From: Myxococcota bacterium
GTDB lineage: Bacteria > Myxococcota_A > SURF-8
Direction: 5' to 3'
NCBI GenBank assembly: GCA_963674735.2
Contig: CAXXQS010000002.1
Location: 1,280,001-1,344,000, forward strand
Length of the DNA stretch: 64,000 nucleotides
Shown piece by piece: positions 50,847-55,912 of the stretch; positions within the stretch are counted from its first letter, which is position 1; each line of letters begins with the position of its first letter. Under the pieces are notes generated by a model, which worked only from the letters and a program-made list of their open reading frames with translations, had not been told where the DNA came from and did no database searches. The position numbers were made by a program, and so were the translations under genes.

Positions 50847-51545
50847 GTGACGACGTCCATCGTGGAACTCAAGGGAGTGGAAAAAACCTACAAAGACAAC
50901 GGTGTGGCCGTCCATGCCTTGCGCGGTCTCGATCTGATCGTCAAACCGGGGGAGTTTACCGCCATCTGCGGCCCCTCCGGATCGGGTAAGACCACCGCCC
51001 TCAATCTGATTGGGGCGCTCGATACGCCCAGCGCCGGAACGGTGACGGTGGAAGGCCGGGATTTGTCGAGCATGCGTGGACATGAGTTGTCCAAAATGCG
51101 CTTGATGCGTCTGGGTTTCATCTTTCAAGCCTACAACCTCATTCCGGTGCTAACCGCGATGGAGAACGCCGAGTTCGTGTTGATGCTGCGGGGGGTGCCG
51201 GAGAGCGAGCGGCACGAGAAAGTGCGCGCCATCATGAAAGATGTGGGGATGGAAGACTTGATGGACCGGCGTCCGAACCAGCTCTCGGGCGGACAGCAAC
51301 AGCGAGTGGCTATCGCCCGCGCCGTGGTGACCGAACCGGCCTTGGTTCTGGCCGACGAACCCACCGCCAACGTGGATTCGAAAACGGCGGAAGCCTTGCT
51401 GGATCTGATGCACAAACTCAACCGTGAACGGAACGTCACCTTCCTGTTTTCCACCCACGATCCGCGCGTCATGGAGCGCGCCGACAGGCTCGTCACCTTG
51501 CAGGACGGCCAGGTGATCGCCGACGAGGTACGTCGGTCCGCTTGA
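50847..51545 (+). CDS. ABC transporter ATP-binding protein (LolD/MacB-like)
   Basis: [31 protein letters not shown]. Confidence 0.96.
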
Positions 51546-51579
51546 TCGGATAGGGGGAAGAGGGTGACGATCGGTCGGA

Positions 51580-52488
51580 TTACTTGGCGATTGAGACGCC
51601 CAGGCCGATTCCGGCGAACAATCCGTGCATGGTGCCGAGTTTCCCCTCGGCATTTTGGGGAATGTTTTTAAAGACGCCTTCGTAAGCCACGAACAGATCG
51701 ACCATCAGGAATTTGTAGATCTTGTATTCGATTCCGGCGCCGACATCGACGCCCGCCCCTTCATCGTAGCGGTCGGTCCCGCCCGGCGGAGCCCAACCGG
51801 TTTGGACAAAGCCGACGTGACCCATGATGTAGGCGCGAAAGCTCTCATCATAAAAGCGATAGCGCAGGCCGGGCTTGACTTCGATGATTTTCAATCCAGC
51901 CGTTGCGCCGTCGAGGCTGGTTTTGCCCCAAGTCTGAGATAACCAAAGTTCGATGCCGAGATAGTCCCACAAGTCGTAACCCAGGTTGCCACCCACCGCG
52001 AAGCTCGTTCTTTCGCCGGTGGCCGGTACGGAGCCTGCACCGAAAAGTGAAAAACGCAGGTGATGTTGGCCTTTTCCCTCTTCGTCTGGAACGGATTCAT
52101 CTTCGGAACCGGCGATAACCTCGTCCTCCTCTTCGTCTTCGGATTCGTCGTCTTTTACTGTTTCGGTGGTCGGAGTTTGGGGTGCCGCTTCAGCGGTTAC
52201 CGGATCAGCTGGAGAAACGGGGGCCGCCTCGGGCTCCGTTTCAACTGGCGGCTCGGCAGGGCTTTCTTCAGTGGCCGGTTCTTCCGGACCAGCAGTCGGG
52301 TCGGCGGCCGTTTCGGACTTGGCGGGTGTCGGCTCGGTGGCAGCCTCGGAGGGAGGACTACTTTCGATCGTCGCTTCGGGTGCGGGTTCCGATGGCGCGG
52401 TCGAAGTGGATTCGGCCCACAATAAAGTCGGAAAGCTCAGCGTCACAAGTATGAGCGTTATCGGTAAAGACAAACCTTTGAGAACCAT
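51580..52488 (-). CDS. Outer-membrane beta-barrel protein with Pro/Ala/Glu/Thr-rich stalk
   Basis: Signal peptide; low-complexity acidic N-half; about 8 amphipathic strands ([31 protein letters not shown]); RBS GGGAGG. Confidence 0.8.
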
Positions 52489-52762
52489 CTGTATCCTCCC
52501 CGAACGGCAGTGTGGACATACGCCGACAAGCCACATGAAAAGTGGTATGAGTGTAGCAGAGGTTGGGGAGGATGCAAACGAAAGTTATGATGCGTTTAAG
52601 GTCGGACATAAAAGTATCGCGGCCTTCTCTGCGACTTTTGGGGAAGGGAAGGGTCAAGAATTGACGCGCATCACTCTTAGATGGGGAAACAAGGAGAATA
52701 AACCCATTCTCCCTCGGGGGTATTCTTGAAGAAATATTGATCCGCAGAGAAGGCCGTGGAAA

Positions 52763-52846
52763 TCACTTAGCTTCAAAGAACGTGGCTAACCAGTATCTGA
52801 CGTTTTCGCGAATGATGACGGTGACAAGTTCAAGAAGCGGTTGCAT
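52763..52846 (-). CDS. Unannotated 27-aa small ORF MQPLLELVTVIIRENVRYWLATFFEAK
   Basis: RBS GAGGA 7 nt before ATG; lies downstream of a sigma54 promoter; followed by hairpin GGAGAAT/ATTCTCC at 52693-52712. Confidence 0.45.
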   Translation of the reverse strand: MQPLLELVTVIIRENVRYWLATFFEAK

Positions 52847-52861
52847 GATGTCATCCTCAAT

Positions 52862-53052
52862 GAAAGGAAAAAGGGAGGAGACCGGATAGGGCAACCTGGA
52901 AATAGAACATGAACCTCAGCGCACGACCAACTTTAACTTCAACACCACAGCGAGCCGCAATTAGTTCCGGTCTCCTCGAACCTTGATTTCGTCTTTCCTT
53001 GCCGTAGCAAGGTGAGATAGCCATTTTCTCAAAGAACTCACATCCGAATGGC
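52862..53052 (-). ncRNA. Candidate sigma54-dependent structured sRNA or leader RNA
   Basis: CCTTGC-TACG-GCAAGG hairpin (52997-53012); perfect 12-bp stem GAGGAGACCGGA/TCCGGTCTCCTC (52966-52977 with 52875-52886) followed by CCTTTTTCCTTT. Confidence 0.5.
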
Positions 53053-53062
53053 AGTTAATAGT

Positions 53063-53079
53063 AGCAATCAGTGTGCCAA
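53063..53079 (-). promoter_or_regulatory. Sigma54 (-24/-12) promoter
   Basis: TTGGCAC-ACTGA-TTGCT, an exact match to TGGCAC-N5-TTGCW; IHF-like AATCAACACTGTA at 53087-53099. Confidence 0.8.
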
Positions 53080-53620
53080 AAAACGCAATCAACACTGTAA
53101 TGGTTGTTAATTACCTTGAATCATTGATAATTTTTAGTTATTTTTGTTTTACTGGATTCCACGGAGAAAAAAGACTATACGATCTCAAGCAGAAACGACG
53201 CAATATTTACGCCAACGAGCCGCTATAGCTCGAATGGGTCTACTGAAGGGAATTATTAAGCACTGATATGCAAAACCACGTATTTACGCTATTGAAAATC
53301 AGTAGAAGTACGTAGTCTTCTTGCCTTTTTGCCGCGCATTAATTGCGTTAAATTACGTATTGACACAAGTATGATTTAGTATAGTACTGATATAATTATA
53401 TAAATTAGATAATGATGACGCATTCATTTGTGTGTCCATAAATGCAACACAATTATGCGTTATTTTCCAGGTTAACCAGGTATACCAAAAGCTACTTACT
53501 TCGATCAAAATCGAGCTGCAAGATGGTGTCATATCGGTAATACTCAATAAATCCAGATATATAGGAAATATTACCCTCAACGGTTATGCCGCATGCACTC
53601 TTTTTCCAGAGATCGGATGA

Positions 53621-53759
53621 AGTGTTGCACGAAAACTGCAACACTGTATTTTTGGGCGAACATTGTGCAGCGATGCGTGTAAGTTATTGTTATTTCATGA
53701 TCATTTGCAATATAAGTAAGAATGAGGCCGAATAAGTGTTGCCGATTTGCCGCAACACT
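53621..53759. promoter_or_regulatory. Two palindromes AGTGTTGC-N9-GCAACACT with identical arms
   Basis: 53621-53645 and 53735-53759; IHF-like TAACAATAACTTA (minus strand) at 53680-53692 between them. Confidence 0.7.
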
Positions 53760-53989
53760 TTGCTGCGCTGGCCCGCCTTCTCTCTCCGTGTGACGCCGGG
53801 AGAAGCGTTGGAAATCGAATCGTTTTTACATCAGAACCGATTCGAAAACGCTGGGACGATAGTAAGGAGCGTGTTACCGACCCGAGCGGAAGAAATCACG
53901 CTTGCGGTTTTGACACGATGTGTTAAAGTGACCGCAACATCCAGATTAATCGCCGACCGTGCCCTTCTTTGGAGCGAATGGAGTGAAAC

Positions 53990-55912
53990 ATGGCGGCTTT
54001 TCGTTTTTCGGCCCGTGAACATGAGATCATCTATCGCCTGGGTCAGGTCATGATTCCGGCGGGAAAGATCTTCCCGCCGTTCTATCGTGATTTGTCGCTC
54101 AAAATCGAGCGCAAGCTGGCCGAGTCCTCCCCGACTTTGGGGCAGGCGTTTCGTGGCATGTTGTGGACGCTGGAAGAAAGTTCGCGCCTGCGCTACCTAC
54201 GCCCCTGCTCCAAGCTCGTTCCCGCAAAACGCTTGGCTTATCTAATGAGTTGGGCTCATGGCAGTTATCCCCAGCGCCTGGCCCTGCGACTGGTGTCCGG
54301 AGCCATCAAGATTGCGTATTACGACGATCCCGGGCTGTTCGAGCAGATCGGGGTGGACTATTACAAGCCGCCGGTCAAAGACGAGCCGGCGCGCTGGATG
54401 CAGCAGGTGATGCCCGGCGATGCGTTGACCGAAGACACCGAGCTTGAAGCCGAAGTGGTGGTGGTCGGCACCGGCGCCGGTGGGGCCGTGGTGGCTGCCG
54501 AACTCGCAGCCGCGGGCAATGCCGTCGTGATGATCGAAGAGGGCGATTACACAAGCCGCTCCCAATATTCGGGGCGTCCGTTCGACATGCAGGCGCTTTT
54601 ATATCGCAACATGGGGCTCACGGCCACCGTCGGCAACACCAGCATGGTGGTCCCGGTGGGCTGCACGGTAGGCGGTACCACCACGATCAATTCGGGAACC
54701 TGCTTTCGCACGCCGCGCCGAACACTCCGGCGCTGGCGCGAGCAATACGGCTTGACCGACTTTACCCCGAAGGCCATGGAATCCTATTTTCAGCGGGTTG
54801 AGGCCGTTTATCAGGTAACGGATGCGGAGATGAAGTATGTCGGTCCCAACGGCACCATCATCGCACGCGGGGCCGAACGCCTCGGTTATTCGCATGGCCC
54901 GCTTCCCCGCTGCGCCCCCGACTGCGACGGCCAAGGGGTCTGCTGTTTCGGCTGTCCGACCGACGCCAAGCGTTCCACCAACGTGTCCTACGTGCCCCGC
55001 GCGCTGGAAAACAATGCCTATTTGGTTGCCGGAACCTGCGTGGACCGCATTCTGATCGACCAGGGGCGCGCCGTGGGCGTGAGCGGTCTTTCGAAGAAAA
55101 CCGGTAAGCGTCTGACGGTCAAGGCTTCGGTTGTGGTGTTGGCCTGCGGAACCTTTTATACGCCTCTTATGTTGATGAAACACAAACTGGGCGCACGATC
55201 GGGTCAGCTTGGAAAGAACCTCTCCATTCATCCGGCTTCCAATGTCGGAGCGCTGGTGGATGAGTCGGTCGAGGCCTGGAAAACCATTCCCCAGGGTTAC
55301 ATGGTGGACGAGTTCGATGAAGAAGGCATTATGCTCGAAGGGGCGACGCTCCCCTTGGACTTCACCGCCATGTTCGTGCCCGATATCGGGCGCAGTTTGC
55401 AGGAATTGATGGAGAACTACACCCATCTCGCCAGCTTCGGGTTCATGATTGAAGATACGTCGCGTGGGGTTGTGCGTCCCGGTGCGGCAGGCATGCCGTT
55501 GATTTCCTACTTCGTCAACAAGCAGGATCTGGGAAAAATTCTACGCGGAATCGAAATCTTGTCGCGCGTGTATCTGGCCGCCGGAGCGCGCAAAATCATG
55601 CCACCGGTTTTCGGCTGGGATCCGATATTCAGTGAAACCGACCTGGAAGCCAACCTTACCCGCAAGGTGCATGCCCGCGATGTGGACCTCAGCGCCTTCC
55701 ATCCCCTGGGGACCTGCAGTATGGGCGACAATCCCGATCGGTCGGTGACCGGGCCCTACGGCGAGATGTGGGATGTGCCCAACCTGTTTGTCTGTGATGG
55801 CTCGGCTGTTCCGCCCGCGCTGGGAGTGAATCCGCAAATCACCATCGGGGCGCTGGCCACTCGCACGGCCGATTATATTTCCGACCGGCTAAAGACCCTC
55901 AGCCAGATATGA
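53990..55912 (+). CDS. GMC family oxidoreductase
   Basis: VVGTGAGG, VGGTTTINSG, CDGQGVCCFGCP, FHPLGTCSMG, GVNPQITI. Confidence 0.92.
   Translation: MAAFRFSAREHEIIYRLGQVMIPAGKIFPPFYRDLSLKIERKLAESSPTLGQAFRGMLWTLEESSRLRYLRPCSKLVPAKRLAYLMSWAHGSYPQRLALRLVSGAIKIAYYDDPGLFEQIGVDYYKPPVKDEPARWMQQVMPGDALTEDTELEAEVVVVGTGAGGAVVAAELAAAGNAVVMIEEGDYTSRSQYSGRPFDMQALLYRNMGLTATVGNTSMVVPVGCTVGGTTTINSGTCFRTPRRTLRRWREQYGLTDFTPKAMESYFQRVEAVYQVTDAEMKYVGPNGTIIARGAERLGYSHGPLPRCAPDCDGQGVCCFGCPTDAKRSTNVSYVPRALENNAYLVAGTCVDRILIDQGRAVGVSGLSKKTGKRLTVKASVVVLACGTFYTPLMLMKHKLGARSGQLGKNLSIHPASNVGALVDESVEAWKTIPQGYMVDEFDEEGIMLEGATLPLDFTAMFVPDIGRSLQELMENYTHLASFGFMIEDTSRGVVRPGAAGMPLISYFVNKQDLGKILRGIEILSRVYLAAGARKIMPPVFGWDPIFSETDLEANLTRKVHARDVDLSAFHPLGTCSMGDNPDRSVTGPYGEMWDVPNLFVCDGSAVPPALGVNPQITIGALATRTADYISDRLKTLSQI

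Follow-up and report, generated by a model that had tools for sequence, protein, structure and literature searches.

Sigma-54-dependent regulatory RNAs such as Qrr, GlmY/GlmZ and CrcZ are non-coding. RNAIII of Staphylococcus aureus is a highly structured RNA of 514 nt. It is turned on by a response regulator, and its 5′ part specifies a 26-amino-acid helical peptide; intramolecular structure delays translation of this peptide, and the 3′ domains act on ribosome-binding sites (PMC12612679). For Pxr of Myxococcus xanthus, the literature reports a non-coding RNA that is short and forms three stem-loops (PMC5684412). Here we describe a compact unit on the minus strand of a 64,000-nt stretch of DNA from a Myxococcota bacterium (hereafter the window; GenBank assembly GCA_963674735.2, contig CAXXQS010000002.1, positions 1,280,001 to 1,344,000; all coordinates are those of the window unless stated otherwise). 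The unit, at 53079–52620, joins a sigma-54-type promoter, two long-range RNA helices, P1 and P2, and, between them, an open reading frame (ORF) of 27 codons. An earlier annotation made by a model from the sequence alone (the original prediction) had proposed an undescribed small RNA or a controlled micropeptide system at this place, and that view stands because promoter, stem and ORF are conserved in related genomes, the helices covary, the ORF bears a coding signature and no Rfam family or repeat element matches the region. This is a real, conserved unit, so far undescribed within the families and literature searched and confined to one family of uncultured Myxococcota.

Among the described systems, RNAIII is the closest working analogue, in architecture and not by homology. 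The unit resembles it in predicted length (433–572 nt in four genomes), in having an activator-dependent promoter, a helical product of 27–30 amino acids and a predicted masking of the Shine-Dalgarno (SD) sequence, and in a C-rich 3′ domain with YCCC motifs. The two share no sequence or structural homology, belong to different phyla and differ in promoter type, sigma-54 here as against AgrA-dependent in RNAIII. Pxr comes from the same phylum and was put forward in the original prediction as a sigma-54-associated regulatory RNA; our unit is about four times longer and predicted to be coding, and it matched no Rfam family at E ≤ 10, Pxr included if that family is in the library. With Qrr, GlmY/GlmZ and CrcZ the unit has in common an activator-dependent sigma-54 promoter and the form of a short self-contained RNA gene, but it is unrelated to them in sequence and contains a conserved ORF and two long-range helices. 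The hok/mok/sok system offers a long folded mRNA, a masked ribosome site and a possible coupled upstream frame; it differs from the single-copy chromosomal unit with its sigma-54 promoter, whose peptide lacks a membrane span and beside which no antisense RNA gene is evident.

The comparison is based on four loci, the window (genome G000, 5.26 Mb) and its counterparts in G001, G003 and G004, all related metagenome-assembled genomes that represent four genera of one Myxococcota family. The same layout was present once per genome in four of the six genomes, and four of the five genera, of this family: promoter, 98–104 nt, P1, pyrimidine tract, SD and ATG, an ORF of 27–30 codons, and P2. Across the four genomes, 72–78 nt separate the predicted transcript start from P1, P1 spans 100–223 nt, 28–40 nt lie between its end and the ATG, the ORF occupies 84–93 nt, the stop codon precedes P2 by 6–21 nt and P2 spans 129–146 nt. 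That promoter, spacing, both stems and the ORF are conserved in three other genera is the strongest argument against a chance arrangement.

A six-frame search of 40 relatives with the 27-residue peptide recovered the loci in G001 (E = 2.3e-5, 59% identity), G004 (0.02) and G003 (0.06). A profile built from the four peptides then returned E values of 4e-16 to 3e-17 in exactly four of 401 Myxococcota genomes, with a next best value of 0.011; the peptide was not found in the fifth genus, represented by two genomes with a completeness of 86% and 79%. Among 1.84 billion protein representatives the same profile had four hits, three of them true (the proteins of G001 and G004 and a further member, P0003, called as a separate gene of 29 amino acids) and one a spurious repeat protein. 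The G004 copy had been called as a fused protein of 78 amino acids (P0002). Likewise, a covariance model of P2 found one place per genome in the four unit-bearing genomes among 61. Since the unit is single-copy in each genome, it is not a repeat or a mobile element.

Other searches gave no further members. A DNA search of 40 relatives with 641 nt matched only the genome of origin, and a search of that genome with the region returned the self-match and no other copy. Searches of protein collections with a 55-residue ORF and a 43-residue extended ORF produced no candidates, the window's own included, and a metagenome scan with the 55-residue ORF yielded 594 pattern stretches with none confirmed. 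Within 51000–55000, Rfam cmscan at E ≤ 10 reported three weak matches, all at 52139–52330 and none within the unit. The original prediction had named a known Rfam family or repeat element as grounds for abandoning it; neither emerged from cmscan, the own-genome search or the covariance model. Among four sequencing runs listed for the locus there was no RNA run. A limited full-text literature search, which is not proof of unpublished status, revealed no paper on such a unit.

All elements that the original prediction had listed, namely the promoter, leader stems, tetraloop hairpin, 12-bp stem, U/C tract, ribosome-binding site, 27-codon ORF and a later hairpin, could be read in the sequence at the positions given for them. 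The promoter, TTGGCAC-N5-TTGCT, is exact (53063–53079; the −24 element TTGGCAC at 53079–53073, the −12 element TTGCT at 53067–53063), and TTGGCA[CT]-N5-TTGCT lies on the same strand upstream of the ATG in all four loci, 98–104 nt before the P1 arm, conserved at a fixed distance. In the window the pattern occurs once even when one mismatch is allowed; 27 of 100 shuffled sequences had at least one such match. The exact 12-base form has 10 occurrences in the 5.26-Mb genome, and the looser TGGCA[CT]-N5-TTGC has 27, of which 12 lie outside any open frame of at least 150 codons. The genome encodes rpoN (PF04552, 216.6 bits), as do all five of its family relatives.

The leader would extend from a start near 53052, placed by reference to the promoter, to P1 (52978–53052), that is, 75 nt in the window and 72–78 nt in all four loci. 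It contains UCUUUGA (53035–53029), which is common to all four genomes some 17–24 nt into the leader, and the hairpin CCTTGC-TACG-GCAAGG (53012–52997), with a hairpin at the corresponding place in three of the four. The competing stems of the original prediction, GCCATT (53052–53047) with AATGGC (53026–53021) and GTGAG (53041–53037) with CTCAC (53015–53011), are present in the window but are not conserved as sequences. It had further described the locus as an AT-rich gap. This is true of the region upstream of the promoter (53100–53600, 33–37% G+C, compared with 55–65% in its flanks) but not of the element itself, at 44–48% G+C; in the three relatives, too, the 420 nt upstream of the promoter are AT-rich relative to their own genome (0.44, 0.41 and 0.48).

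P1 is formed by two perfect 12-nt arms, GAGGAGACCGGA (52966–52977) and TCCGGTCTCCTC (52875–52886), with 79 nt between them. When aligned on a CCGG core, the four genomes all retain 11 pairs (44 of 44 cells paired), and compensatory changes occur at three positions, for example G-C and A-U in the window versus A-U and G-C in the other three. In the full-length fold of each species' unit, the pair probability of both P1 and P2 is about 1.0. Together with the U/C tract, the ribosome-binding site and the ORF, this stem of the original prediction is conserved in the relatives, with covariation in the stem and a coding signature in the ORF. The interior of P1 (52887–52965; 78–197 nt among the genera) is poor in A, rich in G and U, and strongly periodic, with period-3 and period-6 signals and G enriched in one phase. 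It may be an upstream frame, coupled to the ORF or extending it at the N-terminus, or else a triplet-periodic platform to which a protein binds; we prefer neither reading. An antisense small ORF inside P1 (MN[VL]S...) was considered and rejected; it is not conserved in G003 or G004.

Downstream of P1, the segment at 52847–52874 holds a C/U tract (52874–52859) and the SD sequence GAGGA (52858–52854), with seven bases between it and the ATG. In all four loci P1 is followed by a U/C-rich tract. Folding predicts that the SD is base-paired in the window, where UCCUU of the tract is its partner, in G001, within a CCUCG/CGAGG hairpin, and in G004. At its start the P1 5′ arm has a purine run, to which RNAalifold pairs UCUUUGA of the leader; the alternative partner of this run is the P1 3′ arm. 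Such alternative pairing could act as a switch that frees or hides the pyrimidine run complementary to the SD.

The small ORF (MQPLLELVTVIIRENVRYWLATFFEAK; 52763–52846, ATG from 52846, stop at 52765–52763) comprises 27 codons and a stop, and its homologues in the relatives, MSALLKLMAVIVREQTRAWLATFFDTKAVR, MKAVFELFSTIFKENMKFWFSSIFEEKRG and MRAMFELITVVVRENWKILVSSIFETR, fall within 27–30 amino acids. The ATG, a purine-rich SD and the stop hold their places in all four loci. Nucleotide identity of the ORF across the four genera is 46–58%, and differences by codon position number 87, 33 and 100, second positions being the most conserved. The forward frame set by the ATG is open in all four and has the best mean BLOSUM62 score, 2.32, where the other frames score −0.51 to 0.96; of the antisense frames over the ORF, one is likewise open in all four. 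AlphaFold2, given five sequences, predicted a single helix over residues 2–28 (mean pLDDT 81.8). The hydrophobic moment of the protein is only moderate, and the middle of its sequence is occupied by a conserved [RK]-E-[NQ]-x-[RK] block. The best 19-residue Kyte-Doolittle means are 0.46–0.98, and no stretch is hydrophobic enough to span a membrane. The protein had no significant match in Pfam (best E = 0.11, for one of the four members only) or the PDB (best E = 1.2) and none in NCBIfam, and the fused 78-residue form of G004 had no match at ≥0.9 in the ESM Atlas. We also considered a precursor of a ribosomally synthesized and post-translationally modified peptide, with a variable cysteine-containing part and a conserved helix, and rejected this candidate; no modifying enzyme or exporter is conserved nearby in a 9-kb comparison.

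A near relative of the window provided a comparison at closer range. The Logan contigs of run X4, which stems from a different study, include a 262-nt piece that covers 52737–52993 with 21 differing letters and four gap letters (about 92% identity; individual differences are given for positions no closer than 33 nt to a contig end). For X4 pieces from the neighbouring genes, identity is about 84–86% (13 of 82, 23 of 161 and 16 of 94 letters differ). The 79-nt P1 interior has one visible change and the 84-nt ORF nine; only two changes fall within 52866–52960/61, one of them inside a P1 arm, and the pyrimidine tract has two 2-nt deletions and two substitutions. Six of the nine changes in the ORF are at third positions, four codons are changed synonymously, and the rest give Q2K, I12V and A26V. 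Because of this pattern, the ORF behaves as a coding sequence, for which we predict translation, and the P1 domain appears to be held at the nucleotide level, its interior having accumulated fewer changes than the synonymous sites of the ORF.

The account in the original prediction was incomplete at the 3′ end, where it had overlooked a perfect 14-nt inverted repeat after the ORF (52756–52743 and 52633–52620). These are the arms of P2, a helix of 15 pairs between CGGCCTTCTCTGCGG (52742–52756) and 52620–52634. All 60 of its 60 cells are paired; in four pairs both partners have changed, each time in one genome only, and two G-U variants occur. None of 500 column shuffles reached the observed values, a control that overstates significance for these sequences, and slid partners were 42–51% paired. 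Across P1 and P2 there is no broken pair in any of the four genomes. The P2 interior (52635–52741) is C-rich and G-poor (C/G 1.67), with seven YCCC motifs and, 3′ of the ORF, a hairpin at 52713–52693; among the four genomes C/G is 1.7–2.4 and the YCCC counts are 7, 9, 2 and 6. It also contains the motif GUGAUGCGCGUCAAUUC at 52674–52658, whose core GCGUCAA is invariant in all four. After P2 comes a U-rich stretch, CGAUACUUUUAUG (52607–52619), a possible 3′ end, which is UUUUAUG-like in three of the four genomes and reads UUUUUCUACG in G004.

Read by eye as DNA, the motif at 52658–52674 and its counterparts in the three relatives (L022, L023 and L024) follow TGAT-N5-TCAA, and may be a DNA site and not an RNA motif. 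This sequence resembles an FNR/CRP-type half-palindrome. A pattern of the P2 arms plus GCGTCAA picked out six stretches in genome contigs, of which two were true (G001 and G004), and four in metagenome contigs, none true. The remaining four genome stretches were discarded as three copies of an unrelated Anaerolineales repeat and one Paraburkholderia coding region. The repeat is about 160 nt long and near-identical among L035, L036 and L038 (all from one Anaerolineales assembly) and L073. Its inverted termini fit the pattern fortuitously, and it resembles a miniature mobile element unrelated to the unit.

On balance, the unit is likely to be transcribed independently, under an activator, as an mRNA that encodes a helical small protein and is equipped with regulatory RNA domains; as such it may be a dual-function RNA. 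Transcription would be started near 53052 by the sigma-54 holoenzyme with an ATP-dependent activator. The RNA would begin with the 75-nt leader, followed by the long-range helix P1 closing the G/U-rich insert, and the pyrimidine tract after P1 would mask the SD. The 27-codon ORF would come next and give the single-helix small protein, and about 105 nt of C-rich, G-poor sequence would form a domain closed by P2. The RNA would most likely end soon after P2, giving a unit of about 430 nt. The small protein would accordingly be made only once the activator fires and the masked ribosome site opens. P1 and P2 would serve as domains of RNA-level control or stability, perhaps with further roles in their own right; P2 might shield or set the 3′ end or, jointly with the C-rich, G-poor tract, load Rho. 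The transcript start and end, the need for an activator and the masking of the SD are all inferred from the sequence.

Several observations weigh against this reading. The comparison comprises only four sequences, from kin that are not independent. The folding energy is unremarkable (z = −2.0 over 573 nt and −0.7 over 213 nt). P2 with the U-rich stretch was not recognized as a canonical intrinsic terminator in a terminator scan, and between P2 and the next gene of the window, which encodes an OMP_b-brl protein, there is neither a terminator-like nor a promoter-like site at the scan threshold, so the two may be co-transcribed. In all four genomes, the frame of the P1 interior in which G is in phase runs without a stop from the P1 arm until 12 nt or less before the ATG, for which shuffling gives a joint expectation of 0.012–0.014; because of the period-3 signal and this open frame, the translated product may exceed 27 amino acids. 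Finally, the candidate activator sites of the window, discussed below, lie far from the promoter, 545–660 nt upstream.

The gene situation downstream bears on whether the unit might instead be a regulatory 5′ leader of an exported-protein gene, in which translation of a leader peptide would set read-through past P2 by Rho- or structure-dependent attenuation. We hold this to be unlikely. In its favour, the product of the next same-strand gene has a signal-peptide-like N-terminus in each of the four genomes, the stop codon lies 6–21 nt before the P2 5′ arm, and the P2 interior plus the next 100 nt have a C/G of 1.3–2.4, like a Rho-loading site; there is no terminator-like site after P2 in the window or in G001, where no promoter-like site precedes the next gene either. 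Sigma-54 has been linked to genes of the cell exterior (PMC3162934). As candidates for a terminator with an alternative antiterminator overlapping the ORF there are P2, although it is not canonical, and small alternative hairpins in the folds of G001 and G003 only. The next genes are nevertheless 130–500 nt from the unit and, outside the pair of the window and G004, are not homologous, so that no conserved operon lies downstream. Within 9 kb the OMP_b-brl gene is the sole shared neighbour, in these two genomes only, and the stretch after P2 shows no similarity between them. In G004 a terminator-like hairpin and then a promoter-like site intervene between the unit and this gene, and in G003 a 10-of-12 sigma-70-like site precedes the following gene. 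Conservation of the peptide as a protein sequence would be unusual for a leader peptide, which matters only through being translated. A leader-peptide attenuator of the classic kind is thus unlikely because the downstream genes differ, and a self-contained unit is preferred because these genes are unrelated and 130–500 nt away, with sites intervening in G004 and G003.

The period-3 signal of P1, with G in one phase and the frame open in all four genomes, invites the reading that the product is larger: the frame would be an upstream ORF or N-terminal extension, coupled or fused to the 27-residue part in the manner of mok/hok, and ribosomes would open P1. The in-frame fusion in G004 (P0002) fits this, as does, going by the visible differences, an 85-codon fusion in the X4 contig, and the stop of the frame coincides in part with the ATG in G001 (ATGA) and with the SD in the window. 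On the other hand, the conserved P1 arms are read in different frames among the genomes, the start codons are inconsistent (ATG, TTG, GTG and GTG) and lack a clear SD, an open frame across the P1 span alone is common in shuffled sequences (21–59%), and G-first triplets exclude stops by themselves. With the P1 interior more conserved against X4 than the synonymous sites of the ORF, and P0003 called as a separate gene, we regard a larger product as improbable. A type I toxin-antitoxin-like locus, that is, a silent structured mRNA for a membrane-damaging peptide under antisense RNA control, is very improbable. The short peptide, the long structured mRNA and the predicted SD sequestration do resemble that class, and the original prediction had drawn the analogy; it is weak given that no 19-residue window of the protein is hydrophobic enough to span a membrane, the charged block sits mid-helix and the hydrophobic moment is moderate. 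Nor was a conserved antisense promoter seen on the opposite strand, inspected by eye, and the unit is single-copy in each genome. Sigma-54 promoters are not known to be usual at type I toxin loci. Scarcely credible is a non-functional origin, from a chance promoter and stems or a decayed mobile element: the folding energy and the frequency of promoter matches with up to one mismatch in shuffled sequences would agree with it, but promoter, spacing, compensated stems and ORF have been kept across four genera in which the neighbouring GMC protein is 55–64% identical, and the single-copy unit is better conserved in X4 than its neighbours.

If the preferred reading of an independent mRNA is taken further, the unit could tentatively be seen as a myxobacterial counterpart of RNAIII, a sigma-54-triggered RNA of about 0.45 kb that would be both the message for a helical small protein and a riboregulator. 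By this analogy, the YCCC motifs of P2 would pair with G-rich ribosome-binding sites of envelope mRNAs, for example the SD of the OMP_b-brl gene, GGGGAGGA. An oligomeric RNA-binding protein might load onto the G/U-rich, triplet-periodic insert of P1, or the insert might be an upstream frame whose coupling to the small ORF times its translation. Co-regulation may also link the unit to a second sigma-54-driven non-coding RNA beside a REC-PAS-AAA+ activator gene.

Two palindromes upstream of the promoter emerged from an inverted-repeat scan as candidate sites for a bacterial enhancer-binding protein: AGTGTTGC-N9-GCAACACT (53735–53760), about 660 nt upstream, and AGTGTTGCA-N7-TGCAACACT (53620–53645), about 545 nt upstream. 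The pattern TGTTGC-N(1–13)-GCAACA has six sites in the genome versus five for a mirrored control pattern. Three of the six lie upstream of two sigma-54-type promoters, and the third of these directly follows a REC-PAS-AAA+-HTH_8 activator gene elsewhere in the genome. In G004 a palindrome of the same type is located at −162 from the promoter of the small ORF; no exact palindrome of this type was present upstream of the unit in G001 or G003. A link between the unit and the REC-PAS-AAA+ activator through these palindromes is suggestive only.

At G000:C2:1238597-1241030, a REC-PAS-Sigma54_activat-HTH_8 gene (1238597–1240474), the candidate activator, is followed within 60 nt by GCAACAC/GTGTTGC palindromes and, at +149 from its stop, by the sigma-54 promoter TTGGCACACATATTGCT. 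After this promoter come about 375 nt with no convincing ORF and no Rfam match, ending in a strong terminator. The arrangement of activator gene, palindromes and promoter at +149 is repeated after a 66%-identical orthologue in G004. This region is a candidate activator-linked non-coding RNA. The locus at C2:1240624 resembles in its gene order the arrangement of an activator followed by pxr.

Turning to the neighbouring genes, the OMP_b-brl gene (51580–52488, minus strand; Pfam E = 3e-08) encodes an exported protein and lies outside the conserved unit. Its start at 52488, about 564 nt from the predicted transcript start, is the first of an ordinary same-strand gene, confirming the claim of the original prediction that none occurs for about 570 nt downstream. 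Its SD region GGGGAGGAUACA (52490–52501) is complementary at 11 of 12 positions to 52565–52576, 63 nt upstream, which suggests that the translation start of this gene may be masked as well. The protein has an acidic linker of about 130 residues, rich in Pro, Glu, Thr and Ala, between signal peptide and barrel, and the opposite strand of the linker carries long spurious open frames. On the other side of the unit, synteny through the divergent GMC oxidoreductase gene is not kept among the relatives. Adjoining that gene on the minus strand are an extracytoplasmic function (ECF)-type sigma factor gene (58332–57685) and then a FecR/TPR anti-sigma-like gene (57682–55940), Pfam having been run on the second gene only.

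Development and envelope biology in Myxococcota are under the control of sigma-54 and its many activators, and outside model bacteria small proteins and regulatory RNAs have been little explored. The unit described here had gone unannotated; it joins an activator-dependent promoter, as predicted, with two covarying long-range helices and a conserved protein of 27–30 residues, and no part of it matches a described family. Its ORF illustrates how genes this short escape gene callers, since only versions of at least 29 codons or fused versions are found in protein collections. The locus would allow the study of how RNA structure may gate the translation of a small ORF and, in this phylum, of dual-function RNAs of the RNAIII type.

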